Shown: piece by piece, positions 3,827 to 51,252 of the stretch
Layout: each line of letters starts with the position of its first letter
Numbering within the stretch: the first letter of the stretch is position 1
Virus record (IMG/VR): IMGVR_UViG_3300029544_000195
DNA length: 64,000 nucleotides
Direction: 5' to 3' (one strand)
Origin: a virus
Program-made: the position numbers and the translations under genes
The notes under the pieces: generated by a model
The model's input: only the letters and a program-made list of their open reading frames with translations
Database searches by the model: none
What the model was told of the DNA's origin: nothing

Positions 3827-4582
3827 TCATTTCCAATAACAGTATATACATTGATGTTTGCATGGATGTTTGCAATTTAATAATTCTGTTTTGCAGGATA
3901 AGCACAAGCATCCGTTGCGGTTCTGCATATTTACTTTTGTATTTGAATCTAATCGTAAACCAAGAATCCGCAAATCAATCTCTGATATGCAACCGGAATG
4001 AACAAATAATCCATCAGAGCTATTTAGATATGATTCAGCACAAGTATGAAACTGAATATCATATTGGCTCAATGTATTACATACATCATCCATCATAGAC
4101 TTTGATGCATAAAAATTTGAACCATAAATCGGAGCAAATCCGATTTTACGAAATCTTTCTTTTACATGAGGATATTCGTCAAATATAGAAATGCGTACTC
4201 TCATACATGGCAATAATTGCATATCAAATGCCATATCCAATACTTCGCAAACCCGTTTTAATCCATTTGAAGTAGGGAAAATTGGGTCAATGCGAAGCAC
4301 ACATTGTTCCAACGGAAACCCTTTTTTAATAAGCTTCCGCAATTGTGATAATTGACTATGGTATGGCGGAACGTTTGGTTCAATAATGGATTGCCCCCAT
4401 CCAGTGCAAGTAGCATGGATAATGAGTTTGTATCCATTTTGATAAGCCTGCATTACTCTATGAATAAATTCATCTGTAATGTTTTTTGTAATAAGAATTA
4501 CTCCCGATACAGTGCTTAATTTATCATACCACGAAAAGTCCAAGGCCGCATCACCACGTTCTGTAATTCCAATTTTTATCAT
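3827..4582 (-). CDS. DUF1848-like protein with extreme C-terminal CX3CX3CX2C (radical-SAM-like) cysteine cluster
   Basis: 251-aa ORF with AGGAGG RBS. Last residues are CKHPCKHQCIYCYWK. From memory, Pfam DUF1848 is described with a C-terminal radical-SAM-like Cys cluster. Confidence 0.4.
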   Translation of the reverse strand: MIKIGITERGDAALDFSWYDKLSTVSGVILITKNITDEFIHRVMQAYQNGYKLIIHATCTGWGQSIIEPNVPPYHSQLSQLRKLIKKGFPLEQCVLRIDPIFPTSNGLKRVCEVLDMAFDMQLLPCMRVRISIFDEYPHVKERFRKIGFAPIYGSNFYASKSMMDDVCNTLSQYDIQFHTCAESYLNSSDGLFVHSGCISEIDLRILGLRLDSNTKVNMQNRNGCLCLSCKTELLNCKHPCKHQCIYCYWK

Positions 4583-6908: not shown

Positions 6909-9032
6909 ATGGATGTAATGAAAGGAAAATATAATAAATTACTGTATATGGGGCGCGATGGTGTTGCCTATTTTTCTATGTTTGTATCGAAGACGCCACT
7001 ACCTTACGAAAGCACATATAGTACATATATTTGTTCTGGACGAGTCCCGGAATATAATCGTGGGTATCCGCTTACTTTACACGGGCATTGGACGAAATCA
7101 AACAAATGGAAATTTGAAGTTGAATCTTTTGAGGAAGATTTGAAAGAAGGATATGTTTTAGAAGAATATTTAATGCAAATTGATGGAGTCGGGGCTGTTT
7201 CTGCTAAAAAATTAGCGGGAGTTAAAGATATTTGGAATTATGATATTTATAATTCTGAACTTTTAGCAAAAAATACTGGATTATCGAACGACCTTTGCGA
7301 AACAGTAATTTCCACATTAAACAAGCAAAAAGGGCGATATGATTTATATTGTTATTTATGCCAATATGGAATTACTGATATTAAGGTGGATAATATAATT
7401 GAAACTTACGGAAATAAGGCACTACAATATATTAAGGATAATCCATATGATATTCTAAGAAAATACAATACTTCATTCGCTGTTATGGATGAAATTGGCT
7501 TTGCAGCCGGACTTAATTACTATAATTTAGATAGGCTTGACGCTATGCTGCATTATGCTATGGATTTATGTACAAAGGACGGTAGTACTTTTGTTCTTAT
7601 CAATGATTTGATTGAGAAAATGTTATGGATAGCAAAAAAAAGCATCTATGGTGTAGAAATTCCGGATGGCTTTTTAGCAATTGCTCTATCAAATGCAAAT
7701 TGGTTATATGTGGATAAAATAAATGACCGAGTTTACTTAAAAGAATATTGGTATCGAGAATATGATATAGCAAGAGGAATTGCCCGCTTAGAAAATACAA
7801 AAACCGTATTAAACATTTCAAAGAAAGATGTTAACTGGGTAGAAAAGAAATTGAATATTACTTATGCATCTTCTCAAAAAAATGCCTTTAATTTGTTGAA
7901 CAGCACAGGCGTTAAAGTGCTAACCGGCGGCCCCGGAACTGGCAAAACAACACTCATAAATGGAATTTTGACGCTTTACAAAGAAAAGTACCCAGATAAT
8001 AAAATTGCTTTATGTGCACCAACCGGAGTGGCGGGCGAGCATATGGCTGAATCTACGAACTCTCCAGCGTCTACCATACATCGGTTATTAGAATATCAGC
8101 CATTTAGTGATGAAGAAGCATCTTACAAAGATATGGATGACCCAATTGATGCGGATTTTATTATCATGGATGAAACTTCTATGACGGACACTAAGTTGAT
8201 GGGAATGTTTTTTAATGCTATTCAATCTGGAAGTTTAGTTTTATTGTGCGGAGATATTGACCAGTTAGACAGTGTTTGTCCGGGAGCCGTTTTGAGAGAT
8301 ATTATTAATTCTAAAAAAGTTGACGTATATCGCTTAGATACACTTTTCCGCCAAAAACAAGGTTCGACCACGATTATTAACAAGGATAAAATTAAAATAA
8401 AAGACTGTGAGTTAGTTATGGATAATCAATTTCAGATTTTACGATATAATTCTGGCAAAGAAATTGATTCTATCTTAACTACAGTTTTAAAAAAGGAAAA
8501 TAACCCACAAATTTTAACGACCCCAAACAAGGGAGCGGCCGGAGTGTATGCATTGAATCATTTAGTTCAGTCATCTTTTCAGTTTGAAGGAAGAGAAATA
8601 CACCGTAATGGATATGTTTTTCATAAAAACGATAAGATTATGATGATTGTTAATAATTATAAAGCCGGTTATTTTAATGGCGATATTGGAAAAATAATTT
8701 CAATTACTGATGCCGGAACTGTAACGATACAAATTGGAAAGAAAACAATCGTAATGGAGCATACATGGTTAGAAGATATGGTTTTAGCGTATGCCATTAC
8801 AATACATAAATCGCAGGGAAATGAATTTGACACTGCAATTATTGTTTTGCCGCAAAATCCAGAAATTCTTCTTAATAAGCATCTAATATACACGGCAATA
8901 ACGAGAGCCAAATCCAAAGTGATTATTTTATCACAAGGAAATGCACTGGAAAAAGCAATTATGAATGATGCTCGGTTTTCAAAGAAAACAGGACTAAAGG
9001 AAAAAATATGTATAACATGTGATAATGTTTAA
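6909..9032 (+). CDS. recD2: RecD2-like ATP-dependent DNA helicase (SF1B)
   Basis: N-terminal RecD2-type OB region. HhH (VSAKKLAGV). Walker A LTGGPGTGKTTL. Walker B FIIMDETSM. C-terminal YAITIHKSQGNEFDTAII helicase motif. Confidence 0.8.
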   Translation: MDVMKGKYNKLLYMGRDGVAYFSMFVSKTPLPYESTYSTYICSGRVPEYNRGYPLTLHGHWTKSNKWKFEVESFEEDLKEGYVLEEYLMQIDGVGAVSAKKLAGVKDIWNYDIYNSELLAKNTGLSNDLCETVISTLNKQKGRYDLYCYLCQYGITDIKVDNIIETYGNKALQYIKDNPYDILRKYNTSFAVMDEIGFAAGLNYYNLDRLDAMLHYAMDLCTKDGSTFVLINDLIEKMLWIAKKSIYGVEIPDGFLAIALSNANWLYVDKINDRVYLKEYWYREYDIARGIARLENTKTVLNISKKDVNWVEKKLNITYASSQKNAFNLLNSTGVKVLTGGPGTGKTTLINGILTLYKEKYPDNKIALCAPTGVAGEHMAESTNSPASTIHRLLEYQPFSDEEASYKDMDDPIDADFIIMDETSMTDTKLMGMFFNAIQSGSLVLLCGDIDQLDSVCPGAVLRDIINSKKVDVYRLDTLFRQKQGSTTIINKDKIKIKDCELVMDNQFQILRYNSGKEIDSILTTVLKKENNPQILTTPNKGAAGVYALNHLVQSSFQFEGREIHRNGYVFHKNDKIMMIVNNYKAGYFNGDIGKIISITDAGTVTIQIGKKTIVMEHTWLEDMVLAYAITIHKSQGNEFDTAIIVLPQNPEILLNKHLIYTAITRAKSKVIILSQGNALEKAIMNDARFSKKTGLKEKICITCDNV

Positions 9033-10827: not shown

Positions 10828-12444
10828 ATGAGTACTTTAAATGTAGTGGAGGTATTATTTAACCATAAACCAGTCGATGTACATTTTCTTAGCAAAAAAA
10901 CATCACAGACAATAACAGTTAGCCCTCAATTTTTATCAGGCAGACATAATCCTGCGTCCCCTGGTGTAAAGATAAGTGGCATTGCCAAGATGTTTGATTA
11001 TTTATATCAAAAAGGCGAACCATGTAGGATGTGTATTTATTTTTCAGCCAAGAATAAAATTGCATATGTTGAATTATCCGTTCCATCTGAAATGATTCAC
11101 AGTTTGATTACGCCAAATGAAGTTCGTGTATATGAAGCTGCCGAATCAATTTCTGAAAAATGGCATTTATTACCACTTATTGCAGTTCAGTGGATGATGA
11201 ATGCGGATTGTTCACTTCTTTCATTTTTAGAAAAAGTTCAAAGTAATATAAGTGCTGTTCAAAATGCAATAGGATTCACTGATGAATTTTATTATTACGG
11301 AAAAGATAAAGGCCTTTTGTCTTCAGTTTCAATTGATTTTGGTAATGCAACCATTTTAGCAGAAGCAAAAAGAGCTTTCCAAAATGGAATGTTTTCCGAA
11401 AAAGCAATAAAATTTGGAGAAATGATATCAGCTCTAGAGCAATATCAAACGAAAAAAGAAACAAATTCATCAAATCAGCAAATTGATTATGAAAAACAAT
11501 GGGAAGAAATCAAAGCTGGAAAATATTTACTGGATTATGAATGGAGAGATGATTTACAAGATTATATCAAACCATTAAGTTTTTTGGATAAATATGTCCC
11601 AGACCGCATGTTTTGGCAATTGTTTCGTATTTTTAAAATACGTACACAAAAAGCACTTACCAGAATAAAAGAAGCTCAAGATGCCGGACTATCATTTCCG
11701 GAGGCACAAAAAGATGATTGTTTAAACATTTTTTTGCATGGCCGCGCCGGTACTGGTAAATCGTACTTATTATACGCATTAAGCGCTGCCTTTGGAATCC
11801 CTGCTCCTTTTACAAACTGTTCAAAGGGAACAGAGGAAGATACGTATGAAGGCATTACAAAAGTTATTGATGGTAAATTAACAGAAATTGAAACATCAAT
11901 GATTAAAGTTTCCCAAAATGGTGGCATGTGGATTGGTGAGGAGTTTGACCTTACTGACCCAGAGGTAAACAAGGGTGTTTTTAATCAATTGACAGAATAT
12001 CCTTATATTGCAATGAAAAGTGGATACAAACCAGTCAAAAGACATCCATTAGCTATTTTCGCAGCCACTTTTAACGTGGGAGAACAAAGCCCTCGTATGG
12101 ACCCGGCGTTATCTTCTCGTTTTGTTCCGTCTTTACGGTTTAAAGACCCAACAAAAGAAGATTTTATTAAACGAATGATAGCTTCCGGAGCCAAAGATGA
12201 TACGGCAAATCAGGTTTATGATGCATATATAAGAATTTTAACTATGCTCAAAGACCCGGATATTAATGGCGAAGAATGTGAGGAATATATTGTTCCTCGT
12301 CTTTGTATTGAAACATGTAATTTAATTGACAAGGACAACTTAGATTTCCGTACAGCGATTGAAATTTGCATGATAAATAAAATCGCAGAAATCAGACCAG
12401 ATGTGGCTGACGAAATTTATGTTGCAATGGATTCATATTTTTAG
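10828..12444 (+). CDS. MoxR/CobS-like AAA+ ATPase with ~290-aa N-terminal extension
   Basis: Walker A FLHGRAGTGKSYLLYAL. Walker B region WIGEEFDL. Adjacent to a vWA partner, the typical MoxR-vWA / phage CobS-CobT arrangement. Confidence 0.65.
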   Translation: MSTLNVVEVLFNHKPVDVHFLSKKTSQTITVSPQFLSGRHNPASPGVKISGIAKMFDYLYQKGEPCRMCIYFSAKNKIAYVELSVPSEMIHSLITPNEVRVYEAAESISEKWHLLPLIAVQWMMNADCSLLSFLEKVQSNISAVQNAIGFTDEFYYYGKDKGLLSSVSIDFGNATILAEAKRAFQNGMFSEKAIKFGEMISALEQYQTKKETNSSNQQIDYEKQWEEIKAGKYLLDYEWRDDLQDYIKPLSFLDKYVPDRMFWQLFRIFKIRTQKALTRIKEAQDAGLSFPEAQKDDCLNIFLHGRAGTGKSYLLYALSAAFGIPAPFTNCSKGTEEDTYEGITKVIDGKLTEIETSMIKVSQNGGMWIGEEFDLTDPEVNKGVFNQLTEYPYIAMKSGYKPVKRHPLAIFAATFNVGEQSPRMDPALSSRFVPSLRFKDPTKEDFIKRMIASGAKDDTANQVYDAYIRILTMLKDPDINGEECEEYIVPRLCIETCNLIDKDNLDFRTAIEICMINKIAEIRPDVADEIYVAMDSYF

Positions 12445-12455
12445 GAGGTGCAATT

Positions 12456-14189
12456 TTGTTTGAAAAAGAATTAAGAAATTTTGAACGTATTTTTCGAGGG
12501 ATAACCGGAAAGCGGTGTGTATGCTTTCCGGAAACACCTCCGGAACTTGGACATACCGATGAAAATGCACATATTTATGTTGCAAAGGACCATGAATATT
12601 ACAAAGGTCTATCTATTGCAGAACAAAAAATGTTTCGGTTGGGAATTTTTACCCACGAAATGCTGCATCAAATTTTTTCTAACTTTTCTTTATTACAAAG
12701 AATGGCAAAAAAATTGGGCGAAAAAGAGTATCGGGTTTTTGCTGAATGTAACAACTTAGTAGAAGATGCCAGTATCGAATTTATGGCATCTAATGTTATT
12801 AAAGGCAAATTATTAAAAGCGTTACAATTCAGCATACAAACAATATATCTTAATACGCCGCAATTGCAGGAAATCCCTTCTCCATATCAACAATTTATTT
12901 GTGCTTTAGTACAATTTGGAGATATGGGAATTTTAAAAGGAGATTTTACTTTCCCGGAATCCAAAGAATGTTTTAATCAAGCAGCTAAATTGTTTGACAA
13001 AGCAGTAGAGAGCCAAAGTACAATTGTAAGAAAAAATTGTGCTGTAAAAATTATGGAAATTGCCAGACCTTTATGGGAGAAGGAAGATTTAGAAGATAAA
13101 TCAAAATCCATTTCAGATTTATTTGGCAGTAGTTCTAAAACCTTAACAAAAGGAGTTTCTTGTTGCGATGGTAAGTCGATTAAAATTCATGAAGATGAAA
13201 CAGAAAATAGCGCATCTGCACGCAGAAAAAAATATTTGAAGAAAAAAACTTCTGGAGCAGATGATAATGATTCGATTCCCGTAATTGCTATTACATCAGA
13301 AGATTTAGACTGGCTTACATCATCAGAAGATTTAGCGGTAAAACGGCAAAGCGAAGAAAAAAAACAAAATCAAGAAGATGCTATAGATAAATCAATTCGA
13401 CCAAACATTTCAGTAGACCGTCTTAGAAATTTAGATGTGGAATGCGGAGTGGAGGAAGAGTACAAAAACCATATGGCAGCTTATCGCCCAATTATAAATT
13501 CTTTTTCAAAAACTTTACAACGCATTTTTCAAAATGATAAAAGTGAAGTTGTAAAAAAGAAAAAAGGGAAATTGAATATTGAGCGATATTATGCTCCTCG
13601 AAAGACTCCTCGAATTTTTGACCGCCGTACTACACCGAAAAATATTAAAGACATGGCGATTACAATTGCAATTGACGAGTCCGGTTCTATGACGGCTGAA
13701 GAAATGGGCAAAAAACGCACTCGAATTGCCAAAGAAGTGGCATTATGTTTCGCAGAAGCTTTTTCTCCATTTAATGTACCATTATATGTCTTTGGTTATC
13801 ATGATGATGTAACACATCATCATTATATTAAATGGCGTAACACAAGAAAAGAACGCACAAAATTACTTGTGTATAATTGTTATGGCTGTAATCATGATGC
13901 AGCAAGCATTAATTATGCAGTTGAATTATTGAAAAGCCGAAAAGAAAAACATAAGCTTTTAATTGTTATTACAGATGGTATTCCATCAATTGGAGAACCA
14001 TTGGACGTGCAGAACGAAGTACGTAAAGCTCGAAAAATGGGATTTGCCGTTTTGGGTGTGGCGATTGGAAATGATGCCACAGAAGCAATAAAAACGATGT
14101 ATGGAAAAGATTTTTTTCATGTTACATCAACAGAGACAGCTTTTAAAAATGTAGCTAAAATCATTTCAAAAATGATTCAATCATGGTAA
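12456..14189 (+). CDS. HExxH metallopeptidase-like + von Willebrand factor A domain protein (DUF2201/CobT-like), TTG start
   Basis: N-terminal FTHEMLHQIF (HExxH). C-terminal vWA with MIDAS IAIDESGSMT and VITDGIP. AGGAGGTG RBS 5 nt before TTG. Confidence 0.6.
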   Translation: MFEKELRNFERIFRGITGKRCVCFPETPPELGHTDENAHIYVAKDHEYYKGLSIAEQKMFRLGIFTHEMLHQIFSNFSLLQRMAKKLGEKEYRVFAECNNLVEDASIEFMASNVIKGKLLKALQFSIQTIYLNTPQLQEIPSPYQQFICALVQFGDMGILKGDFTFPESKECFNQAAKLFDKAVESQSTIVRKNCAVKIMEIARPLWEKEDLEDKSKSISDLFGSSSKTLTKGVSCCDGKSIKIHEDETENSASARRKKYLKKKTSGADDNDSIPVIAITSEDLDWLTSSEDLAVKRQSEEKKQNQEDAIDKSIRPNISVDRLRNLDVECGVEEEYKNHMAAYRPIINSFSKTLQRIFQNDKSEVVKKKKGKLNIERYYAPRKTPRIFDRRTTPKNIKDMAITIAIDESGSMTAEEMGKKRTRIAKEVALCFAEAFSPFNVPLYVFGYHDDVTHHHYIKWRNTRKERTKLLVYNCYGCNHDAASINYAVELLKSRKEKHKLLIVITDGIPSIGEPLDVQNEVRKARKMGFAVLGVAIGNDATEAIKTMYGKDFFHVTSTETAFKNVAKIISKMIQSW

Positions 14190-14197
14190 AGTATTCA

Positions 14198-14225
14198 AAA
14201 AAAGCCCCTTTATGGGGCTTTTTCT
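14198..14225. terminator. bidirectional terminator
   Basis: aaaaaaGCCCCtttatGGGGCtttttct between convergent genes. Confidence 0.6.
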
Positions 14226-15354
14226 AATTAAAATAGTTGTCAATTGACATATCATTTACAATATCTTCTGCAACTAAACGATATTTATTATCATTCGATA
14301 TGTTGCCGACATCTAAATTATAAAAATGTTCCGTAATTGCTTTTTCTGCCAAATTACGGACTGTTCGTGCATTTGCAAAATTAGAGTTTTTCTTTTTTGA
14401 AAGCAATATTTTTTCTAACTTTTCTAATGCTTCTAAACTGACTACCATGTTTTCGGCATAAATCAAATTGATAAAAATTCGCTGCATTTCTTCGATTGTA
14501 TAATCTTCAAACATAAAATAGTTTTTTATGCGAGATGCAAGTCCAGAATTTGAGTTAAATAATTTCTTCATTTCTTTTTTGTACCCGGCTAATATAACAA
14601 TCAGATTAGTTCTTTCGTTTTCCATTTCGTTTAAAATGGTAGATAATAATTGCTGCCCTAGTCCGTAATTGCCTTGGACAAGAGAGTAGGCCTCATCAAT
14701 AAATAATATTTTCCCTTTTGCCCTTGCTAAGAGCATTTTAGTACGTGCAATTGGGTCCTCTCCGGATTTGAAAAAGTTACCATCAACATAAATATATTCA
14801 TTACGTTTTATGTATTTATATTGATATAGAAATCCTGTTAGAATACCGGCAATTGTTGTTTTTCCAGTTCCGGGATTACCTAAAAAGCACATGTGCATAT
14901 TATTAATGGGGTGTTTTTTATCCTTTATTTGCGATTTAAAACGCAACACTTCTTGTTTGACTTTTGTTAACCCGATTAAATCATTTAAATCCTCTTCTGG
15001 ATGCTTACTGCCTTTTTTAACAATGCTTTTGAATTCCGCATCAGACAACAAGGATTCATTTTTTAATAATTGCATCTGTGCTGCCGCATCTCGTTGTTGT
15101 TTTGTTAAATGCTTGTGCTTTCCAGACTTGAATTGACGAGTTGCCTGTTCTAGTCGTTCTTTTCTTAAAAAACTTCGCAAAACAAAACATCCAATCCAAA
15201 ATGCAAATCCAATTACGCCAGCTAAAATATAAGTCAATTGCGTAAAGTGGTAATCATTAATGGATAACCATATCAAACTACCCCAGCCAATAATTGGAAT
15301 GATAAAAAACAAAATGCATCCTAAATTTAATAACAAGGTTCGTAATAATTTCAT
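14224..15354 (-). CDS. membrane-anchored SpoVK/CbbX-family AAA+ ATPase
   Basis: Two N-terminal TM helices. LNDLIGLTKVKQEV...FLGNPGTGKTTIAG...ILFIDEAYSL...VILAGY...SRI, a close match to the SpoVK/CbxX signature. Confidence 0.7.
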   Translation of the reverse strand: MKLLRTLLLNLGCILFFIIPIIGWGSLIWLSINDYHFTQLTYILAGVIGFAFWIGCFVLRSFLRKERLEQATRQFKSGKHKHLTKQQRDAAAQMQLLKNESLLSDAEFKSIVKKGSKHPEEDLNDLIGLTKVKQEVLRFKSQIKDKKHPINNMHMCFLGNPGTGKTTIAGILTGFLYQYKYIKRNEYIYVDGNFFKSGEDPIARTKMLLARAKGKILFIDEAYSLVQGNYGLGQQLLSTILNEMENERTNLIVILAGYKKEMKKLFNSNSGLASRIKNYFMFEDYTIEEMQRIFINLIYAENMVVSLEALEKLEKILLSKKKNSNFANARTVRNLAEKAITEHFYNLDVGNISNDNKYRLVAEDIVNDMSIDNYFN

Positions 15355-17604: not shown

Positions 17605-19476
17605 ATGATTAGTTTGCAGATGGGTGTTATCCCTAACTTGGATATTTTGAGTAAATTGTCAGATATTAACAAAAGAAAAAACTGCTCAGAAAAAATAAAA
17701 AAATATTTGAATGCTGAATTGTCGGAGAGCGAAATGCTAATTGATTGGTCAAAAGCAGGACGGGATTATGATTTAATTCCATGGGCTGATAATAATGATT
17801 ATTTATCCTTATGGGAAGAGCGTCATGCACAGAATGAGTATTATTTAGATGACAAACATATTCTTGGTTCAATGGTTGCTTTTGAAGTTATTGTGGGATA
17901 TGAAAAAGAATTGGAAATGGACATTGAGAAGTGGGGACGTATTCAGTATGATTGGTTTTGTGAAGAATTTTCAGAAGAAAATGTTTTATCGGCAATGCTG
18001 CATTTAGATAGCGAAGCTTATCCTCATTGTCATTTTTTAATTTACTATACGACAAAAGAAGGCGTTATTACAGAATCTCCTTATATTGAGCAGGGAAAAG
18101 TAAGTGCGCAATTTCTTGCTAAATATGAAGATGCAATGAAAAAATTTCAGTTAGACGCTATAACTAGAGAAAAATTGGCAAATTCAATAAAATCAAATGA
18201 GCCTGAGAATAATTCGGATTTTTATTTAGCAACAATTGACCGTTATATATCTGAAAATCCAAGAAGCGCTATTGATGACCAGGAGTATATTTATGACACG
18301 GTGGGCCAGTTGTCGCAAATAGCTTCTGCGTTAAGTATAGAACGACAAGAAGAACTTTTAACAGATTTAATTCACTATTTTATGCGTGTAGAGAAAAATA
18401 CGTTAAAGCAAGCGCAAAAAGGGATTCTTCTAAAAGAAAGCTTCTTTAAAGAGGTGAAAAAACGCTTAAAACAATTAGGGGTTGAAAAGTCAGAAGAAGT
18501 AGATATTATGCTGAAAAGAATTGATAGTGCTATTTATGGTAATTACATTCTTGACCCATTATTAAATGACGAATCTATTTCAGATATTAAAGTAATTGCG
18601 CCAGACAAAATTCGAGTTAAGAGATATGGCCGGCGCTTAACGTCTAATCTACATTTTCGGGGAATTGATGATTATTACCGTTTTTTAAATGGAATTGCGA
18701 TTCGCAATAACACAGATTTAAGCCCTTTTAATGCTGTCCAAAATTTTACAGATAAGTTTTCTAATGATAAGTGCATTATGCGTATTGATATTTGTACAAC
18801 TTTTGTGAATTCAGTGGGGTGGCCGTATTTACATATTCGCAAGGTGCCAAAGAAAAAATATACAATAGAAGATTTAATGAATTTTGGAATGCTTGATGTC
18901 AAAACAGCAGCTTACTTAATTGATAAAGTGAAAAACGGAAAAGGAATATTATTTACAGGAAAAGGTGCATCTGGTAAAACGACTTTGATGAATACGTTAC
19001 TTGATTTGATTTCCTATAACAATTCAGGCCTGGTTATTCAGGAAAACGAAGAATTGTTTTCTAATAAACATCCAGATTTAATGTTTCAGCATGTTGTTAC
19101 TAGCCGCCGGCAGAACGAAATTCAATTTGACCTAAAAGATTTAGCGCGAAATGGCTTGTTGACAGATTTGGATTATTTTGTTATCGGGGAAATCAAGGGT
19201 GGAGAAGCATTTTATTTTTTAAATGCGGCATACACCGGGCACAAATGCTGGGCTTCTTGTCATGGGGCTTCCTCTACGGAGGCAATTAATAAATTAGCGG
19301 ATTATGTCACCTATGAATCCGGGTATTCGCAGGCAGAAGCGAAAAAAATGCTTCAATCACTGGAAACTATTGTGTTTATGAAAAACTTTAAGGTGACAGA
19401 GATTTCAGAAATTACCGGTTGGAACGAAGAAAAGAAAGACTTAACATATCGGGCAATTTATCGTGGAATTGGGTGA
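17605..19476 (+). CDS. CpaF/VirB11/TadA-family secretion ATPase (type II/IV secretion NTPase)
   Basis: LDPLLNDESISDIKV...PDKIRVKRYGRR...GILFTGKGASGKTTLMNTL...VIGEIKGGEA...AYTGHKCWASCHGASSTEAINKL follows the CpaF/VirB11 motif order (Walker A, Asp box, His box). Confidence 0.7.
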   Translation: MISLQMGVIPNLDILSKLSDINKRKNCSEKIKKYLNAELSESEMLIDWSKAGRDYDLIPWADNNDYLSLWEERHAQNEYYLDDKHILGSMVAFEVIVGYEKELEMDIEKWGRIQYDWFCEEFSEENVLSAMLHLDSEAYPHCHFLIYYTTKEGVITESPYIEQGKVSAQFLAKYEDAMKKFQLDAITREKLANSIKSNEPENNSDFYLATIDRYISENPRSAIDDQEYIYDTVGQLSQIASALSIERQEELLTDLIHYFMRVEKNTLKQAQKGILLKESFFKEVKKRLKQLGVEKSEEVDIMLKRIDSAIYGNYILDPLLNDESISDIKVIAPDKIRVKRYGRRLTSNLHFRGIDDYYRFLNGIAIRNNTDLSPFNAVQNFTDKFSNDKCIMRIDICTTFVNSVGWPYLHIRKVPKKKYTIEDLMNFGMLDVKTAAYLIDKVKNGKGILFTGKGASGKTTLMNTLLDLISYNNSGLVIQENEELFSNKHPDLMFQHVVTSRRQNEIQFDLKDLARNGLLTDLDYFVIGEIKGGEAFYFLNAAYTGHKCWASCHGASSTEAINKLADYVTYESGYSQAEAKKMLQSLETIVFMKNFKVTEISEITGWNEEKKDLTYRAIYRGIG

Positions 19477-21457: not shown

Positions 21458-22045
21458 ATGTTCAAAAAAATAATAAATAATTTTTGCAAAGACAGATATT
21501 TTATATTTTCAGTATGTTTATGTTTGATTAGTCTGATTAGTATATGCATACGCATAATTCCAATAAGTATGCCTTTAATAACAAAGATGTTGTTGATTTG
21601 TCCAATAATATCAATCTTTGTCTTTTTATTGTTTACTTCAATAAAAGACGCACACATGAAAGATATTGCAAATTGGCAAGGTATTTTATTTATTTGTATT
21701 GGCATTATTTTATATACAATTCGAATTATTGTGATGAAGACGTCTTTTGTGGATGTACAAGAAGAAACTTTTTCCATGATATTTTTCTTTTTAGGTATTA
21801 TGCTTCTAGGCCGATTTCGAAAATGGAATAAAAAAGCATCATTTCTTTGCGTAGGGGTTGCTATTCATTATTTAGCGGTCTTTGGTAAAATTTATTTTTT
21901 TATATTGCTTATAACTATATTGACAGCGTGTGTTTGTTTTTTCTTATATAGTATTGTTTGTTATATGAGGAAAAGTGACAAATCTAAGGCCCTAATTCCC
22001 TATTTATATGTTAGCTGCTGCATCATATTAAGTATTCTTATATGA
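21458..22045 (+). CDS. polytopic membrane protein (195 aa)
   Basis: GAAAGGAG RBS. 5-6 hydrophobic helices. Confidence 0.45.
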   Translation: MFKKIINNFCKDRYFIFSVCLCLISLISICIRIIPISMPLITKMLLICPIISIFVFLLFTSIKDAHMKDIANWQGILFICIGIILYTIRIIVMKTSFVDVQEETFSMIFFFLGIMLLGRFRKWNKKASFLCVGVAIHYLAVFGKIYFFILLITILTACVCFFLYSIVCYMRKSDKSKALIPYLYVSCCIILSILI

Positions 22046-22060
22046 TTTTTTGAATTTTAA

Positions 22061-22071
22061 CAGACATATTA
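22061..22071 (+). promoter_or_regulatory. phage promoter motif
   Basis: TTAACAGACATATTAAAA. Confidence 0.45.
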
Positions 22072-22104
22072 AAAATGATTATGTTAAGGAGGTGCAAATT
22101 ATGC

Positions 22105-22668
22105 ATGAAAAATATTAAAGATATTGCATTAAACATTATTAAGGATAAATATGCAAAAGATTTTCAATATTCACTAGGTGAAGATGTATTTGAGCATTGC
22201 AACCGGACGTGCAATATTGCTTTGCAAATAGCTGAAGTATATGGATTTAATTTGCAACAAAAAATTGATTTAGCAGCAGGAGCTTTATTACATGATATTG
22301 GAAAATCTTATGTAAATCAAGACGTACTTAATAAAGCCAAAAAATTAACTCAGGATGATAGAACCTTAATTGAGTGTCATCCCCAGTACGGCTTTTGGGT
22401 ATTAAAGCAATTGGACTTTAATCGTACAGTTGTAGATATTGTATATCATCATCATGAACGGCTAGATGGAAGTGGATATCCACAAAAATTACGAGGACAT
22501 AAAATTGATATATTAACTCAAATAGTGAGCGTAGCTGATGTTTATGAAGCGTTGACTGCAGACCGCGTATATCATAAAAAACGGTCAAAAGAAGAAGCTC
22601 TTAAAATTATGAAGTCGGATAAAGGGCTGAACCAAGTTGCAGTTGATATATTAACTGAATGTTGTTAA
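22105..22668 (+). CDS. stand-alone HD-GYP domain phosphodiesterase (~187 aa)
   Basis: LLHDIGKSYV (HD) and HHHERLDGSGYPQKL (canonical HD-GYP signature). Start taken at the in-frame ATG 11 nt after AAGGAGG. Confidence 0.7.
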   Translation: MKNIKDIALNIIKDKYAKDFQYSLGEDVFEHCNRTCNIALQIAEVYGFNLQQKIDLAAGALLHDIGKSYVNQDVLNKAKKLTQDDRTLIECHPQYGFWVLKQLDFNRTVVDIVYHHHERLDGSGYPQKLRGHKIDILTQIVSVADVYEALTADRVYHKKRSKEEALKIMKSDKGLNQVAVDILTECC

Positions 22669-22671
22669 AGA

Positions 22672-22698
22672 GGCTTCTAATGAAGCCTTTTTTCTCAT
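22672..22698 (+). terminator. rho-independent terminator
   Basis: AGGCTTCtaatGAAGCCTtttttctc. Confidence 0.55.
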
Positions 22699-22735
22699 AA
22701 TATGATTTTCATTTTGCCTAAAAACAGACATATTA
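22694..22735 (+). promoter_or_regulatory. bipartite phage promoter (CTCATAATATGATTTTC ... AAAAACAGACATATTAATAG)
   Basis: Bipartite consensus. Confidence 0.5.
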
Positions 22736-22797
22736 ATAGTGTCACGATAATAAAAGGAGACTATTAATAATATCACAACAACAAAAGGAGGATTTTT

Positions 22798-23107: not shown

Positions 23108-24976
23108 ATGAGTTTTAACAAAGAACAAAAAGCAGCTATCAATCATAAAGATGGGCCGTTAATTGTAGTAGCCGGACCGGGCTCCGGGAAAACCACAGTT
23201 GTGGTAAATCGAACGGCTAAATTAATTGAAAAAGGCGTAAATCCATATAATATATTAGTCATTACATTTACGAAAGCCGCTGCCAAAGAAATGCAGATGA
23301 GATATGAGGCTTTAACTCAATGCGAAACACCGGGTGTTACTTTTGGCACAATTCATTCTGTTGCATTGGCTATATTAACAACTTCTTTTGATTATACATA
23401 TGAGAATGTGTTAACAGAAAGAGACGAATGGAATGTTTTGCGCGAAATCATAAAGAACAACAAAATTTACACAGAAGACATTAATACTTTAATCAAGGAT
23501 TTGGTAAGTGCTATCAGTAATATTAAATCCGGAATGCTTAAACCGCCTTATGACATCGAATGCGGTTGCCGGGAAGAACAGTTGCAATTAATTTTCAATG
23601 AATACTGTAATTATTGTAAACAAAACAAAAAAATTGATTATGATGACATGCAAATTGAGTGCCTAAAATTGCTAAAAGAAAACAAGGACATATTGAATTG
23701 TTGGCGTGAACGATATCAATATATTCAGGTAGATGAGTGCCAAGATGTATGCCATACACAGATGGAGTTGATTGAATTATTGGCGAATCCTCGCAATAAT
23801 TTATGCATTGTTGGAGATGATGACCAATCACTTTATCAATTCAGAGGCGCAAAACCGGAAATTATGTTAGCATTCGAAAAGAAAGCAAATGCTAAAAGAA
23901 TTACACTTGATACAAATTACCGTTCTGGAGAAAAAATTGTGAGTGCTGCTTCTGAATTCATTAAATCAAATTCAAAGCGATTTGATAAAGATTTCAAATC
24001 AGTTCGCGAAAAGGGTTCTATTGAGATTAAGCCCTACCGCACGCCGGAACTCCAAGCTATAGGCGTTATAGGCGATATTAAAAAATTGCTTAATAAAGGC
24101 ACCTCACTAGACGATATTGCTATTATCTATCGCACAAATAAAGAATGTCCTAAAATCGCATCTGTTTTAATGGATGCTGATATTCCGTTTATCGCAAAAA
24201 CAGAAGGTGTTGTCAATTTATTTGAACATTGGATTTTTAAAGACATTGTTCGCTTTCATGAACTCGGAAAAAGTATAAATACTGCTCCGTTTGGTGAAAT
24301 CAAAAAAGCTTTAAAACGTCCAACGCGATACATTCCTAATGAAGCCTTGCAGCAGAGCAAGAGCTTAGATGATTTAGTTGAATGGGGCGTTATGCATCGT
24401 AAACCATACATTGCAAGAAATATTTTTCGGTTTAAACAGGATATAAAAACCATGAGCCGTATGAAATTACAAAGCTTTTTGGATTATTTAATCAATCACA
24501 TGGATTATAAAAAGGCCTTGCTTGATTTTGCGGATTATAACAGGATGAATCCTCAGGAATTAATTGATATTCTGGATGAGATTGTTGATACATCAAAAAC
24601 ATTTGATTCTTTCGATGAATGGGTTGAATATGCAAAAGATTACACGTTTACTCTAAAAAAGAGTATTGATGAGACAAAAGAGGGCATCTATTTGATGACA
24701 ATGCACGGCTCTAAAGGCTTAGAATTTAAGCATGTATTCATTATTAACGCTAATGAAGGCTTTACGCCATACTCACACAAAGGCGAAATTAATGACATTG
24801 AAGAAGAACGCCGGATGTTCTATGTGGCTATGACAAGAGCAAAGGATTTTTTACATATCTCGTATACAAACCGTTCAAGAGGAAAGAAGATGCGAGAATC
24901 AAGATTCGTAACTGAATTGGCCGCTGTTATGGATAAGCAAATTACAGACAAAGCACTTTTAAACAAAAAGGAGTGA
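23108..24976 (+). CDS. UvrD/PcrA/Rep-family DNA helicase (SF1A)
   Basis: Walker A VVAGPGSGKTTVV. ILVITFTKAAAKEM. Motif III IVGDDDQSLYQFRGA. YRSGEKIV. C-terminal MTMHGSKGLEFKHVFII and YVAMTRAKDFLHIS. Confidence 0.8.
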   Translation: MSFNKEQKAAINHKDGPLIVVAGPGSGKTTVVVNRTAKLIEKGVNPYNILVITFTKAAAKEMQMRYEALTQCETPGVTFGTIHSVALAILTTSFDYTYENVLTERDEWNVLREIIKNNKIYTEDINTLIKDLVSAISNIKSGMLKPPYDIECGCREEQLQLIFNEYCNYCKQNKKIDYDDMQIECLKLLKENKDILNCWRERYQYIQVDECQDVCHTQMELIELLANPRNNLCIVGDDDQSLYQFRGAKPEIMLAFEKKANAKRITLDTNYRSGEKIVSAASEFIKSNSKRFDKDFKSVREKGSIEIKPYRTPELQAIGVIGDIKKLLNKGTSLDDIAIIYRTNKECPKIASVLMDADIPFIAKTEGVVNLFEHWIFKDIVRFHELGKSINTAPFGEIKKALKRPTRYIPNEALQQSKSLDDLVEWGVMHRKPYIARNIFRFKQDIKTMSRMKLQSFLDYLINHMDYKKALLDFADYNRMNPQELIDILDEIVDTSKTFDSFDEWVEYAKDYTFTLKKSIDETKEGIYLMTMHGSKGLEFKHVFIINANEGFTPYSHKGEINDIEEERRMFYVAMTRAKDFLHISYTNRSRGKKMRESRFVTELAAVMDKQITDKALLNKKE

Positions 24977-25839: not shown

Positions 25840-26817
25840 ATGAAAAGAATGATTATTGCAGTAGCAGCTACATTAAGTATTGTTGGTGGAATGTTTCATA
25901 ATGCATCAGCCGTAGAAAAGGACGTTAAAGAGGTCGAAATGAAGCGAGTCGTATATGTTTCTCCAGAGGTCACTTCAAAAGTAGAAGAACTTAAAGAGGG
26001 CATGAATCATCAGTCTAAAGTGATAAAAAAACTCAGAGAGAAAAAACGAGACATTGCATCTGAGACTAAATTGCAGAAATCTCAAAAATATGCAAATGTG
26101 CAAAATCAGCTAATGGAAGAGCGAAAATCACCATTTGTTGATAATTTGCAAGATGGACTATGGGAAACGCAGAATTTCGCATATCGAGAAATTGACACAA
26201 ATGCCGTCAAGAAAATCTTAAAAGAAAAGAAGATTAGTGAACGGATTAAAACATTAGAGGCTGAAAAGAAAAAATTAAGCCAGAATGTCGATATGGAAAA
26301 ACAGGTGCTTTCTCAGATGAAGATTGACTTGCGGGAATTAAATTCTCTTGATGGCGTTGTATTCAATCCGAATGATGTTACGGAAGTCAGCAATATTTCA
26401 GTCAAACAGATGCGGCAGATTTTGCAGGATACCGACTTACAGGAGTTTGCTCCGGTTTATGTGAGAATTGAAAAGGAATTCTATATTAACGCAATTGTCA
26501 TATGTGCACTTTCTGCATTAGAAAGTGGATGGGGAACTTCTAAACGCGCAAAAGAAGACCATAATTATACCGGCTTTGGTGTGTATTCCGACGAAGCGGA
26601 AGGAATTAATGCAAATAGCGGAGAAGAGAATCTTCGCATGACGGCGGCCCATTTGCAAAAGAATTATCTTACGGAAGGTGCCGTTTACAACAACGGAAAA
26701 AGCCTTGTCGATATCAATAAGAAATATTGCGTGGGAGATACCTGGGCATATAAAATAGCGGATATCGGTTATCGTTTAATGAGAAAGCTGCAAGAAAATA
26801 ATGTTTCTGTACAGTAA
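25840..26817 (+). CDS. secreted peptidoglycan hydrolase with C-terminal glucosaminidase (FlgJ/Mannosyl-glycoprotein endo-beta-N-acetylglucosaminidase-like) domain
   Basis: Signal peptide. Coiled-coil middle. C-terminal ICALSALESGWGTSKRAKEDHNYTGFGVY matches the glucosaminidase ESGWG core. Confidence 0.6.
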   Translation: MKRMIIAVAATLSIVGGMFHNASAVEKDVKEVEMKRVVYVSPEVTSKVEELKEGMNHQSKVIKKLREKKRDIASETKLQKSQKYANVQNQLMEERKSPFVDNLQDGLWETQNFAYREIDTNAVKKILKEKKISERIKTLEAEKKKLSQNVDMEKQVLSQMKIDLRELNSLDGVVFNPNDVTEVSNISVKQMRQILQDTDLQEFAPVYVRIEKEFYINAIVICALSALESGWGTSKRAKEDHNYTGFGVYSDEAEGINANSGEENLRMTAAHLQKNYLTEGAVYNNGKSLVDINKKYCVGDTWAYKIADIGYRLMRKLQENNVSVQ

Positions 26818-30538: not shown

Positions 30539-31063
30539 ATGAGATTAAAAAGACTAAGAAAGGCCACAGAAATAAGAATCAAAAACGAAGGAGAGTATTT
30601 GCTTCTGATGGAATTAGCCGAAAAGGCCGGTTATATATGGGGCGGGACCCTCGATAAGCCGACTCGGTTTAATGATGTGGAAGAATTTTATTGTCGGACA
30701 AAAGCAATTGAACTATTACCCGCTGTTGGGACAATGACGAGGACACCAATGTGTTCAATAAGCCCAGAAGAGACAATCCCACTCAAAAAAGTAATAAAAT
30801 TTGAAGTCGGTGACAAAGTACGACTTCGAGAAGGAATAATTAAGAAACTCAGAAAGAAAAAATCACTTCCAGCAGAAATGTTGATTTCAGAGATGAAAAA
30901 ACAGGTAAATAAAGAAGACGTTATAGAAGACAGTTTTTCCCTTAATTCTAAAAGATATTATTATCTTGAAGGATGTAAGGATATTTTTTATCCTAAAAAA
31001 TGGCTTGACCCAATACTTCCTTCTTTTCCGAAAGAAAAAACTGCTGCCGGAAAGGAGGAATGA
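30539..31063 (+). CDS. hypothetical protein (174 aa)
   Basis: TAGGAGGA RBS. Confidence 0.45.
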   Translation: MRLKRLRKATEIRIKNEGEYLLLMELAEKAGYIWGGTLDKPTRFNDVEEFYCRTKAIELLPAVGTMTRTPMCSISPEETIPLKKVIKFEVGDKVRLREGIIKKLRKKKSLPAEMLISEMKKQVNKEDVIEDSFSLNSKRYYYLEGCKDIFYPKKWLDPILPSFPKEKTAAGKEE

Positions 31064-31065
31064 AC

Positions 31066-31542
31066 ATGAAAATTATTTCGTATAACCTAGAATTGGATGA
31101 AGAGAGAAAACCAATGCTTGTAAAGGATTTCATGTGTGATTATAATGTAATGCATCCGGACCCAGAGAGCATCTATAAAATGATGAGCGAAGTTTTTCAT
31201 GCGGACCGGCTCGCGGAAGAACGAGCATGGCTTATCTCCATGAACACTAAATTAGAACCAAAGGGGATATTTGAAGTAAGCCATGGAAAAATAAACCAAT
31301 CTTTAATCGGAATACAGGAAATTTTTACCAGATTATTACTATCCGGAGGAAATCATTTTGTAATCGTACATAATCATCCAAGCGGTAATCCAATTCCGTC
31401 CAATGCTGATTATGAAATAACCAATCGACTTATTGAAGCCGGGAAAGTTATGGACATTAAGTTAGAAGACCATATCGTGATTGGAGATAATTTACATCCA
31501 TATTTTTCGATGAGAGAACACGAACCAAGTATTTTTTCATAA
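31066..31542 (+). CDS. radC: RadC-like JAB/MPN domain protein
   Basis: HNHPSGNPIPSNADYEITNRL matches the RadC JAB metalloprotease motif (HxHPSGxxxPSxxD). Confidence 0.7.
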   Translation: MKIISYNLELDEERKPMLVKDFMCDYNVMHPDPESIYKMMSEVFHADRLAEERAWLISMNTKLEPKGIFEVSHGKINQSLIGIQEIFTRLLLSGGNHFVIVHNHPSGNPIPSNADYEITNRLIEAGKVMDIKLEDHIVIGDNLHPYFSMREHEPSIFS

Positions 31543-33394: not shown

Positions 33395-33742
33395 AGAATA
33401 GAAGATTTGTTAAGGAGTTGAATATAGTAATTTGGCGGAGTCAAGGCAAGTAGGTGTCTTTTACAATAAGTGTGGTTCGACTCCACCACTTCGCATTAAG
33501 CCTAAGCGCTAGGATGACAAACTAGTTTTCAAGAAAGCACTGCACACGTGTGGAATAAAAGCACAGGCGAAGTTAAGGTAACAGATATAGAAAGTCAGTA
33601 TAAGTCCAAAGATATGTCTATGATATATTTGCATCTGGTGAGTATGTTGGAAAGCCGACCTTAATTAAAGACTTAGGCTAAAGTTGAGGTTGAAAACGAA
33701 ACTATGGTTGCATATTGGAAAATGAGCTAGGAGGACTTAGAT

Positions 33743-34461: not shown

Positions 34462-35007
34462 ATGGAAATGGAAATTGAATTTACAAAAAGTGAAGTAATG
34501 GATATTATCACGCATCTTGTTATGACAGGAGAAGGAGAAGAGGGAAGAGGTTTAAACGCTCATTGCCCGCATCCGGTCGCCCAATCGGAAATTAATTTTA
34601 GGGGGAAAAGAGTAATTTTTTCATTTAACCCGGAACAGGGAGATTCGGTAGAGATGGATGACATTTCAATTCCAGTATCCGGAACTGAAGATATTTGGAA
34701 GACAATTCAGAATAATATAATGTTTTCCGAATGGATTATCGGAATTTGTAACTCTGAAGCCGATGGCGGTGCAAAGTTTTATCGTTTTAAGGGAACAAAA
34801 GAAGAAGCAAAAAGAGAACTGTTTCGCTTGATTTTAGAGGATGTACAAACGGCATCCCGTGACGAAGAAACTCGTTGCTGCGGAACGGAATCATTTAGAG
34901 AAATCAGTGAAAATAATGAAACTGGAGAACTTTATGGCTATAGTATTTTTCAAAATTATTGTATTGATTATACAGCCAAAAAGTTTTCCTGTATTAAGGA
35001 AATTTAA
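34462..35007 (+). CDS. hypothetical protein (181 aa)
   Basis: AAAGGAGAGA RBS. Track ORF 34306 trimmed to the RBS-supported ATG. Confidence 0.45.
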   Translation: MEMEIEFTKSEVMDIITHLVMTGEGEEGRGLNAHCPHPVAQSEINFRGKRVIFSFNPEQGDSVEMDDISIPVSGTEDIWKTIQNNIMFSEWIIGICNSEADGGAKFYRFKGTKEEAKRELFRLILEDVQTASRDEETRCCGTESFREISENNETGELYGYSIFQNYCIDYTAKKFSCIKEI

Positions 35008-35027
35008 AATTGAACAGGGGGAAAATT
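34960..35027 (+). repeat. direct repeat copy 1 (~66 bp; 3' end of gene 34462..35007 + intergenic)
   Basis: TGTATTGATTATACAGCCAAAAAGTTTTCCTGTATTAAGGAAATTTAAAATTGAACAGGGGGAAAATT is ~85% identical to 35648-35713. Confidence 0.6.
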
Positions 35028-35084
35028 TAATTAAAGATTATTAAGTAATATAATATGGAATTATAGAAGAAAGAGGTCGAGATA

Positions 35085-35570
35085 ATGAGTTATAAGGTTT
35101 TAGATGTTTGTCGTTTTGTTATTAATTATAGTAACGAGCGCGATTATGGAATTTCTAATTTGAAACTTCAAAAAGTGCTTTATTTTATTCAGGCATATTT
35201 TTTGATAAAAAAGAAAGACCATTCTACTTGTTTTGATGAGAAGATTGAAGCATGGGATTTTGGACCCGTTGTTCCAGAAGCGTATTATGAATATAAGCAA
35301 TATGGAAGTGGAGACATACCTACAATCAAGTCATATATCATGTTCAATGAAAAGGATATATGGAATGCTAAAAGAATCGAGTTTGAGGATACTATTATTG
35401 CAGATGAGGACAAAAGCCTTATAGAAAGAGTTGTAGATAAATTTGTAGATTATTCGGCAACAAATCTTGTGTCATTAACTTATAGACAGTCACCATGGAT
35501 TGATGCTTATGTTCCATATCAGAATAACGAGATTACAATTAAAGCGATAAGGGAGTACTTTAATGGTTGA
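35085..35570 (+). CDS. Panacea-domain (DUF4065; SocA/GepA-like antitoxin-type) protein
   Basis: N-terminal ISNLKLQKVLYFIQAYFL ... EAWDFGPVVPEAYYEY fits the DUF4065/Panacea pattern (KLQKLLYFAQ...W..GPV). Confidence 0.5.
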   Translation: MSYKVLDVCRFVINYSNERDYGISNLKLQKVLYFIQAYFLIKKKDHSTCFDEKIEAWDFGPVVPEAYYEYKQYGSGDIPTIKSYIMFNEKDIWNAKRIEFEDTIIADEDKSLIERVVDKFVDYSATNLVSLTYRQSPWIDAYVPYQNNEITIKAIREYFNG

Positions 35571-35647: not shown

Positions 35648-35713
35648 TGTATTGATTATACAGCCAAAAAGTTTTATTGTATTAAGGAAGTTTAGAATTA
35701 GACAGGAGGAAAT
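35648..35713 (+). repeat. direct repeat copy 2
   Basis: Retains the degenerate C-terminal coding remnant (...IDYTAKKFYCIKEV*) and the RBS used by 35718. Confidence 0.6.
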
Positions 35714-35717
35714 TATT

Positions 35718-35951
35718 ATGAGTTTACAATTAACAAAAACAGAAAAACAATTGTTGAATCAAGAATTTGAAGGGACGGAATGGTGCCCTCATTGTAACAG
35801 AGAGACAGATTTTAAATATAATCCAATGAAGAACGAATATATAACATGTACAAATTGTGGGATGAAAATACATCCTTGCAGCTTATGTGATGGTAATGAT
35901 TGTAATAATTGTGAGGATGAAATTAAAACATCATTACTGCAATGGGCATAA
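35718..35951 (+). CDS. zinc-ribbon protein (78 aa)
   Basis: CPHCN...CTNCG...CSLCDGNDCNNCED. CAGGAGGA RBS. Confidence 0.45.
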   Translation: MSLQLTKTEKQLLNQEFEGTEWCPHCNRETDFKYNPMKNEYITCTNCGMKIHPCSLCDGNDCNNCEDEIKTSLLQWA

Positions 35952-46486: not shown

Positions 46487-46939
46487 ATGTATGATGTAAT
46501 GAATTTATCTGAGTACATAATTACAAAATGCATTAAGGAAAATCATCTTATCAACAGTATGCAGCTTCAATATATTTTGTATTATATTCAAAAGGCATTT
46601 TTGATTGAAAAAGGTAAACTTGCTTTTTCGGATGATATAAGAGTGAAAGCTTGGGGACCAGCTATTTCAAGTGTATATGACCGTTATTGCGGATATGGCA
46701 CTATGCCCATCTTCTTTTCGCCGGCAAAATATAACGTAGCGAAAGAAGATAAGCAATTAATTGACTCAATTGTAGAAAGTAAACGAGTTTTGACACCATG
46801 GGATTTAGCTGAAGAATTGCGCAGAAAAGATAAAGTATGGAAGCAAATTTACAAAAAAGGCTCCGGATTATTCAATAAAAGAATTCCGGTAAGCTTATTA
46901 AAAACTACAGGAGGGAGAAATATATGGAATATCAATTGA
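46487..46939 (+). CDS. Panacea-domain (DUF4065) antitoxin-like protein, paralog of 35085..35570
   Basis: MQLQYILYYIQKAFL...KAWGPAISSVYDRY matches the Panacea pattern. Confidence 0.5.
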   Translation: MYDVMNLSEYIITKCIKENHLINSMQLQYILYYIQKAFLIEKGKLAFSDDIRVKAWGPAISSVYDRYCGYGTMPIFFSPAKYNVAKEDKQLIDSIVESKRVLTPWDLAEELRRKDKVWKQIYKKGSGLFNKRIPVSLLKTTGGRNIWNIN

Positions 46940-47680: not shown

Positions 47681-47781
47681 GTAGTGTAAGGATGATTAAG
47701 AAAAACATTCTTACATGGAGAACACATTAAAGGAGGGCACATAGCGGAGAACACATTTTTGGAGAACACAGCCAGTAAAAT

Positions 47782-51248: not shown

Positions 51249-51252
51249 TTTT

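Follow-up and report, generated by a model that had tools for sequence, protein, structure and literature searches.

The 64,000-nucleotide stretch of DNA from IMG/VR virus record IMGVR_UViG_3300029544_000195, which was analysed over its whole length and is referred to here as the window, carries a gene predicted to encode a stand-alone HD-GYP phosphodiesterase of 187 amino acids. Its open reading frame occupies positions 22075-22668 on the plus strand, and the ATG at 22105 is taken as the likely start because an AGGAGG sequence lies upstream and the resulting product agrees with the N-termini of homologues. The locus is composed of the following features.

22035-22058, plus strand: AT-rich box TTCTTATATGATTTTTTGAATTTT, lying 5' of the promoter-like motif in a subset of its copies (repeat families D7 and D9); putative function
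22059-22072, plus strand: element-wide promoter-like motif AACAGACATATTAA, ending 32 nt 5' of the start codon
22088-22093, plus strand: putative ribosome-binding site AGGAGG, 11 nt 5' of ATG 22105, as read from the sequence
22105-22668, plus strand: coding sequence of the predicted 187-residue stand-alone HD-GYP phosphodiesterase (Pfam HD_5, alignment, AlphaFold2 model, Foldseek and dN/dS)
22667-22697, plus strand: intrinsic terminator identified by RNA folding, an 11-bp hairpin (22667-22692) followed by a T-run

The product was recognised as an HD-GYP domain standing alone, as the preliminary description of this DNA had proposed in noting that it carries neither a REC nor a sensor domain. The Pfam model HD_5 (PF13487, which covers HD-GYP) matches residues 29-174 at E 7.1e-32 and HD matches at E 6.3e-19, and beyond these the protein gave only a weak, overlapping match to the related model HDOD. 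The HD dyad (H63-D64) and HHHERLDGSGYP (residues 115-126) are both present, and the signature HHExh(D/N)GxGYP, as defined in 10.1101/2021.11.05.467447, is represented by H116-H-E-R-L-D-G-S-G-Y-P126 (HHERLDGSGYP). In an alignment of 26 sequences the columns of H31, H63-D64, K67, H92, H116-H117-E118, G124-Y125-P126 and D145 are invariant. The full metal-binding set of His and Asp residues (H31, H63-D64, H92, H116-H117 and D145) aligns with the ligands of PmGH, the trinuclear cyclic di-GMP (c-di-GMP) phosphodiesterase GAF-HD-GYP of Persephonella marina (4MCW/4MDZ), and of V-cGAP3, a 3'3'-cGAMP (cyclic GMP-AMP) phosphodiesterase of Vibrio cholerae (5Z7C), and metal ligands and catalytic motifs are unchanged in homologues down to 35% identity.

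At the level of structure, an AlphaFold2 model built with 26 homologues (mean predicted local distance difference test score, pLDDT, 92.5) is all-helical with 12 helices, consistent with an all-alpha fold of at least seven helices that superposes on solved HD-GYP domains. Foldseek searches of the Protein Data Bank returned HD-GYP domains only as top matches (template-modelling score, TM, 0.72-0.83; 9rbz, 4mcw, 4r8z, 3tm8), including PmGH and the c-di-GMP-bound DvhD, with the c-di-AMP enzyme PgpH well behind. PmGH shares the fold (Foldseek E 2.5e-9, TM 0.72), the HHExxDGxGYP motif and common metal ligands, including an acidic residue equivalent to its E185, which binds the third metal and marks a subfamily that usually takes c-di-GMP to GMP (10.1101/2021.11.05.467447). 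The candidate for this ligand is D27, four residues before H31, at a position occupied by Asp or Glu in all 17 close relatives and by Tyr in most outgroup sequences. Modelling had been suggested as a check of the trinuclear site, and it bore out the HD-GYP fold; the probable equivalence of D27 to E185 comes from spacing and the published description, not from superposition.

Sequence comparison with solved structures placed V-cGAP3 first (5z7c, E 7.6e-27), an enzyme of the V-cGAP group named in the preliminary description, followed by PmGH (4mcw, E 1.2e-19), with further matches to DvhD (9rc0/9rbz), PA4781 (4r8z) and Bd1817. The architectures differ from both of the characterised enzymes. PmGH carries a GAF sensor, of which the 187-residue protein has none, and V-cGAP3 is a chromosomal, gamma-proteobacterial protein of 463 residues with tandem HD-GYP-like stretches, the N-terminal one degenerate; its C-terminal HD-GYP shares about 40% of aligned positions with the single domain described here, which lacks the extra N-terminal modules (degenerate HD-GYP or REC) typical of the V-cGAP family. 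Against its 97%-identical relative the gene has a synonymous divergence (dS) of 0.23, a nonsynonymous divergence (dN) of 0.01 and a dN/dS ratio of 0.06, and is, on this comparison, under strong purifying selection. Taken together, the intact ligand set, the fold and the dN/dS ratio argue that the protein is an intact enzyme under selection.

Equally relevant is the arrangement of the transcription signals, since the promoter-like motif upstream and the hairpin and T-run downstream suggest that the gene, with its ribosome-binding site, forms a monocistronic cassette; a promoter motif and a terminator of its own had also been described at the outset. The hairpin has a folding energy of -14.4 kcal/mol (z = -4.66), none of 200 shuffled sequences was equally stable, and it has no entry in a simple terminator scan. 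The 14-nt AACAGACATATTAA occurs across the window (5214-59301) in 30 copies at up to one mismatch, and at up to two mismatches it gives 35 matches vs 1.65 expected by chance. Every copy, a second example being 22723-22736, has the orientation of the downstream gene and is found about 20-60 nt 5' of its start codon, frequently directly 3' of an intrinsic terminator; the extended consensus is AACAGACATATTAAnaaTAT, and in about half of the copies cTCATAATATGaTTTTC forms a second box some 13 nt upstream. The motif is found in the 97% relatives (L002, L003) and is absent from the 58% relatives and from the Butyrivibrio megaplasmid pCY360. It looks like an element-specific promoter, which would imply a sigma factor or RNA polymerase of the element's own, or like a 5'-leader signal. 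A repeated 11-mer in the related locus L001 was considered as a second promoter of this kind and rejected, since it proved to be a tandem coding repeat of 15 nt in the gene for a pentapeptide-repeat protein.

The genomic position of the gene is conserved. The order relaxase/ATPase, YdjM, HD-GYP and UvrD, with further genes between, is kept whole in two related loci whose HD-GYP proteins are 97% (L002) and 58% (L164) identical, and the stretch from relaxase/ATPase to UvrD is partly kept in L001 and L004/L005. In three relatives at 58% identity (P0005, P0007, P0008), parts of the order relaxase/ATPase-(YdjM)-(thermonuclease)-HD-GYP-...-UvrD-glucosaminidase are retained. Since the position is kept down to 58% identity, the HD-GYP gene is, as judged from gene order, a backbone gene of the element family and not sporadic cargo. 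No conserved partner gene was found: the 195-residue membrane protein upstream and the 100-residue secreted protein downstream occur only in the 97% relatives, not in those at 58%. The loci in which the order is kept wholly or partly span 34-51% GC, and the elements of P0005, P0007 and P0008 45-52%. Stand-alone relatives that are more remote (about 40% identity) neighbour a split DnaE carrying an HNH insert or, in a chromosome, a GAF gene.

In public assemblies the exact 187-residue protein was found in 81 blocks, which makes the element very common in human-gut metagenomes; the scaffolds that carry it, from human-gut metagenomes, measure 220-406 kb, and its neighbours are identical at the 10 places displayed. 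One member of the protein cluster is WP_182431114.1 of Clostridium sp. AF37-5, and contigs with cluster members reach 967 kb, so that the element may be integrated.

As a separate observation on these neighbourhoods, the UvrD gene of the window (23108-24976) matches the PADLOC GajB models at 2.7e-87, and the 58% relatives carry a GajA-like AAA_15/DUF2813 ATPase gene a few genes upstream of HD-GYP, which places HD-GYP between non-adjacent Gabija-like genes there; the places recorded in the related loci are 3313-5097 of L001 and 6986-8779 of L004. A link to Gabija was rejected, because the UvrD/GajB and GajA-like genes are several genes apart in the relatives and the window contains no GajA-like gene.

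The nature of the element itself follows from its gene content, of which the main items are listed below.

6909-9032: RecD2 helicase
10828-14189: AAA_5/VWA gene pair
17605-19476, plus strand: 623-residue fusion protein, its N-terminus like a MobV/Mob_Pre relaxase and joined to a TadA/VirB11-type ATPase
23108-24976, plus strand: UvrD helicase, three genes 3' of the HD-GYP gene
25840-26817: glucosaminidase with a signal peptide, a secreted cell-wall hydrolase
31060-31542: RadC
35085-35570 and 46487-46939: SocA/Panacea proteins
49856-50953: SPFH protein
56944-59232: VirD4-type coupling protein (T4SS-DNA_transf 2.1e-61, TraG-D_C 4.4e-29)

Firmicute plasmids encode VirD4-like CD1115-family proteins to which the coupling protein is 36-41% identical, with 710 of 968 typed conjugative. 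In the fusion protein the relaxase-like domain occupies residues ~34-184 and the TadA/VirB11/FlaI-type secretion ATPase residues ~240-620; the N-terminus matches the MobV model at E 8.7e-11 with 42 bits, below that model's cut-off of 100, and Mob_Pre at 1.2e-6, above the Pfam cut-off. Mob_Pre and T2SSE are likewise combined in each of the four related loci where the gene occurs (L001, L002, L004, L164), and we know of no description of such a MobV/Mob_Pre-TadA/VirB11 ATPase fusion. No VirB4 was recognised within the 64-kb window, beyond which the element extends, and a search for an origin of transfer returned only weak inverted repeats upstream of the relaxase gene. Among annotated replicons the closest is the Butyrivibrio proteoclasticus B316 megaplasmid pCY360 (NC_014389.1). 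Its ~620-residue type II/type IV secretion-family ATPase matches the C-terminal 63% of the query at 47% identity, and it also encodes a metallophosphoesterase, a thermonuclease and a cell-wall hydrolase and is typed as MPF_T; it differs in that the 41 kb inspected have no annotated HD-GYP and AACAGACATATTAA is missing.

The preliminary description had assigned the gene to a phage-like element, and this assignment did not hold. About 30 proteins of the window were compared with PHROGs and gave no structural family (no capsid, portal, terminase or tail), their matches being confined to helicase, hydrolase, 'endolysin-like' and phosphoesterase families; neither the HD-GYP protein nor the coupling protein matched any PHROG family, and 15 kb compared by megablast with the phage and plasmid collections gave no match. 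With conjugation genes present, a phage origin was rejected, and the host element is, on its gene content, conjugative and megaplasmid-like. The gene was rightly identified as a minimal HD-GYP, and it is the phage context that was wrong.

Several further features of the element were recorded in their own right. A full-length ROOL RNA (RF03087, 389.7 bits) lies at 48734-49308 within an array of six tRNAs (47781-51325; Ile-TAT, Asn, Gln, Glu-TTC, Ser-GCT and Gly-GCC), preceded by promoter-motif copies at 47580 and 47668; it thus stands on a conjugative, megaplasmid-like element, not in a prophage, and ROOL is known both within and outside prophages (PMC5737381). At the left edge (1-1672), genes for FMN_bind and 4Fe-4S (Fer4_5) membrane proteins are followed by a tRNA-Glu(CTC) at 1600-1672, and the first copy of the promoter motif in the window is that at 5214; if the element is integrated, this edge may be its attachment site with chromosomal flank, and no direct repeat matching the end of the tRNA-Glu was found within the window. 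The block at 10828-15354, kept in all close relatives, comprises an AAA_5 (MoxR/dynein-like) ATPase and an adjacent VWA protein; the genes that come next, for an AAA+/AAA_lid_6 ATPase and for a protein whose C-terminus is DnaJ-like, lie on the opposite strand. A DUF1848 protein at 3827-4582 on the minus strand matches the PADLOC model RTasDUF1848, associated with defence-associated reverse transcriptases, at 4.2e-13, and no reverse transcriptase was seen nearby. Two repeat families complete the picture, namely D15, tRNA T-arm-like fragments outside the called tRNA genes (33471-33498 and 51224-51251), and D14, a 72-nt direct repeat with 86% identity (34960-35031 and 35648-35719) 5' of two neighbouring genes.

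Among mobile elements, HD-GYP genes are common on plasmids and nearly absent from isolated phages. A tblastn search of 50,697 phage records gave 31 hits, 30 of them in unannotated faecal-virome contigs and one in the Microcystis jumbo phage MaAM05, and the BFVD viral structure models gave one significant match, gp79 of Bacillus phage G (4.9e-5). IMG/VR viral contigs contain at least 74 loci at no more than 44% identity, several of them on jumbo-sized contigs. The clade itself (at least 50% identity) was found neither in the phage collection nor among the IMG/VR matches listed, and in profile scans of genome contigs and viral contigs the matches listed comprised only relatives at 44% identity or below. 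Plasmids yielded 652 records with HD-GYP homologues, 172 of them on plasmids typed conjugative.

Genes of c-di-GMP turnover have been reported on 6-10% of plasmids, including a conjugative plasmid of Clostridium perfringens, and known enzymes of this kind on plasmids and integrative and conjugative elements comprise the SXT/R391 diguanylate cyclases, the cyclase/phosphodiesterase pair of the C. perfringens NELoc plasmid and PvrR on PAPI-1 (PMC10333796). They resemble the present case in being carried by conjugative elements and reprogramming host behaviour; they differ in being mostly GGDEF or EAL proteins with sensors and accessory cargo, whereas a sensor-less HD-GYP at a fixed backbone position is found here.

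Altogether, these observations can be brought under one explanation, on which our confidence is evenly balanced: the protein would be a trinuclear HD-GYP, constitutive and sensor-less, that overrides host control by breaking c-di-GMP, and possibly cGAMP as well, down to mononucleotides. As gene order and content indicate, a family of large conjugative, megaplasmid-like elements of Clostridia from gut and rumen keeps its gene in the conserved backbone; what the enzyme does, on which substrate, with which product and to what physiological end is predicted from sequence and structural model. The HD-GYP gene would be transcribed monocistronically from the motif that precedes most genes of the element, and the enzyme would hydrolyse a 3'3'-cyclic dinucleotide in any element-carrying cell, with c-di-GMP the most probable substrate and 3'3'-cGAMP a possible additional or alternative one. 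Because the acidic third-metal ligand D27 appears to be present, the dinucleotide would be expected to be broken down fully to mononucleotides instead of the reaction halting at pGpG, and the cyclic-dinucleotide pool of the host would be lowered whatever the host's sensory input. In Clostridia, c-di-GMP controls flagella, pili, adhesins and aggregation, so that a lowered pool would reset these behaviours in the element's favour.

Several challenges to this explanation have to be weighed. Neither GGDEF, EAL and PilZ genes nor a c-di-GMP riboswitch were found in the window or in nine related loci, so nothing on the element ties the HD-GYP to c-di-GMP, and since biofilm states usually favour conjugation (PMC10333796), the gain of a conjugative element from low c-di-GMP is not obvious. 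Both base-recognition motifs also deviate. The KPG loop, whose main-chain carbonyls hold the second guanine (10.1101/2021.11.05.467447), spans K235-G237 in PmGH and is replaced here by K77-A78-K79; relatives at 50% identity or more have K[A/T/V/L/E/K]x at the loop, all without Pro-Gly, and KPG occurs in 43 of 93 outgroup hits. The RxY[K/R] motif, largely responsible for c-di-GMP specificity (10.1101/2021.11.05.467447), corresponds to R314xxK317 in PmGH and to R154-V-Y-H157 (R154xxH157) here, with RxYH present in 20 of 25 database homologues of the clade alignment vs 6 of 93 outgroup hits, 85 of which have RxY[RK]. Substitutions of the motif's Lys, by Gln or Asn, shift enzymes towards cGAMP (10.1101/2021.11.05.467447).

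RxxH is assigned no specificity in 10.1101/2021.11.05.467447, and V-cGAP3 keeps RxYR, so that the RxY[K/R] rule is not general. An exhaustive profile search put the size of the HD-GYP family at 118,236 representative clusters (E <=1e-3); among the best 150 of these, RxYH occurs in 9 of 21 short proteins (<=240 residues), compared with 2 of the 83 domains scored in long multidomain proteins, an enrichment that may be a clade effect. A further variant was seen on the 78.6-kb Clostridia plasmid pVpro of Vallitalea pronyensis (NZ_CP058650.1), where a 179-residue stand-alone HD protein (L009, 14959-15498) has HHHERLDGSGYM (GYM) and RCYQ, which is of the RxxQ type associated with a preference for cGAMP, and lies directly 3' of a Tad-pilus/type IV secretion gene cluster.

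These deviations bear most directly on a rival explanation that we regard as unlikely, in which the enzyme degrades signals of cyclic-oligonucleotide-based antiphage signalling systems (CBASS) or of type III CRISPR in recipient cells and so protects the incoming conjugative element. The sensor-less, constitutive architecture, rare among HD-GYPs (10.1101/2021.11.05.467447) and typical of mobile-element effectors, would suit such a role, as would the status of a conserved backbone gene, the His in place of Lys/Arg together with the lost KPG and the Lys-to-Gln/Asn shift to cGAMP, the enrichment of RxYH in short stand-alone relatives within the 150 best representatives, the RxYQ of the pVpro protein and the choice of cGAMP-specific V-cGAP3 as best match among solved structures. 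The idea has a precedent, since Iyer et al. 2021 found HD-GYP enzymes in all three groups of jumbo phages and predicted that they counter SMODS (CBASS-type) and type III CRISPR signalling (PMC7824862). In that case, as in ours, a mobile-element HD-GYP is proposed as an eraser of cyclic-nucleotide signals, and the role is only predicted on both sides; the difference is that the present gene sits on a conjugative element. The MaAM05 gene, annotated as a cGAMP phosphodiesterase, is 38% identical to the 187-residue protein. The role in immune evasion is consequently not new, having been published for jumbo phages in 2021, and the preliminary description, which had regarded this class as undescribed among phage anti-defence proteins, overstated its novelty.

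On the opposite side, the canonical RxYR of V-cGAP3 itself deprives the motif rule of generality, an RxxS variant still hydrolyses c-di-GMP, and HD-GYPs are reported inactive on c-di-AMP or other cyclic dinucleotides (10.1101/2021.11.05.467447). The HD-GYP gene is not among recognisable anti-defence genes, a survey of plasmid leading regions mentions neither CBASS nor a phosphodiesterase, and among the papers searched for HD-GYP together with anti-CBASS or anti-defence functions no experimental case was found. The protein is also distinct from the phage nucleases against CBASS and Pycsar, Acb1 and Apyc1, which are phage-encoded: its fold is HD-GYP by Foldseek, and it stands on an element with conjugation genes and matches no PHROG. 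Acb1 has a 2H phosphoesterase fold and Apyc1 a metallo-beta-lactamase fold, and HD-GYP is related to neither. An anti-defence function is a legitimate idea for which, in this case, the motif deviations alone would argue, and an anti-CBASS function is kept possible by the deviant RxYH and KAK. The more specific proposal, that RxYH, KPG-less, sensor-less HD-GYPs form a distinct backbone class of gut-Clostridia conjugative elements destroying immune signals (3'3'-cGAMP or other CBASS products) in recipients, is one we consider distinctly unlikely.

We hold it to be quite improbable that the enzyme serves as a scavenger or clean-up phosphodiesterase for linear pGpG, other dinucleotides or a different phosphodiester signal. 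Hydrolysis of pGpG has been linked to an acidic ligand of the trinuclear type (10.1101/2021.11.05.467447), both base-recognition motifs are altered and enzymes of nucleic acids lie nearby (thermonuclease in relatives, UvrD, metallophosphoesterase), but the full HD-GYP signature, whose GYP Tyr touches the cyclic ribose-phosphate ring, is invariant, and c-di-GMP or cGAMP is the substrate of every characterised HD-GYP that has it (10.1101/2021.11.05.467447). A non-catalytic role as c-di-GMP receptor or protein-protein regulator, for which one might cite the top Foldseek match DvhD, a c-di-GMP-bound HD-GYP domain described as a receptor (PMC13090378), and the HD-GYP domains known in protein-protein regulation (10.1101/2021.11.05.467447), is highly implausible given that every metal ligand and catalytic motif is invariant down to 35% identity, that dN/dS is 0.06 and that degenerate receptors usually lose metal-ligand or catalytic residues.

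The significance of the gene depends on its substrate. If the preferred explanation holds and c-di-GMP is merely lowered, the gene would be one more case of plasmid-borne c-di-GMP enzymes. The combination of RxYH with the loss of KPG offers a defined test case for how HD-GYP enzymes choose between c-di-GMP and cGAMP, and the small, regulator-free enzyme lends itself to easy expression and assay. If the substrate is an immune signal, counter-defence by cyclic-nucleotide degradation would extend from phages to conjugative elements; and if the proposed backbone class were to prove true, its members would be the first experimentally tractable HD-GYP anti-defence enzymes and would give conjugative elements, instead of phages, their first anti-CBASS function.

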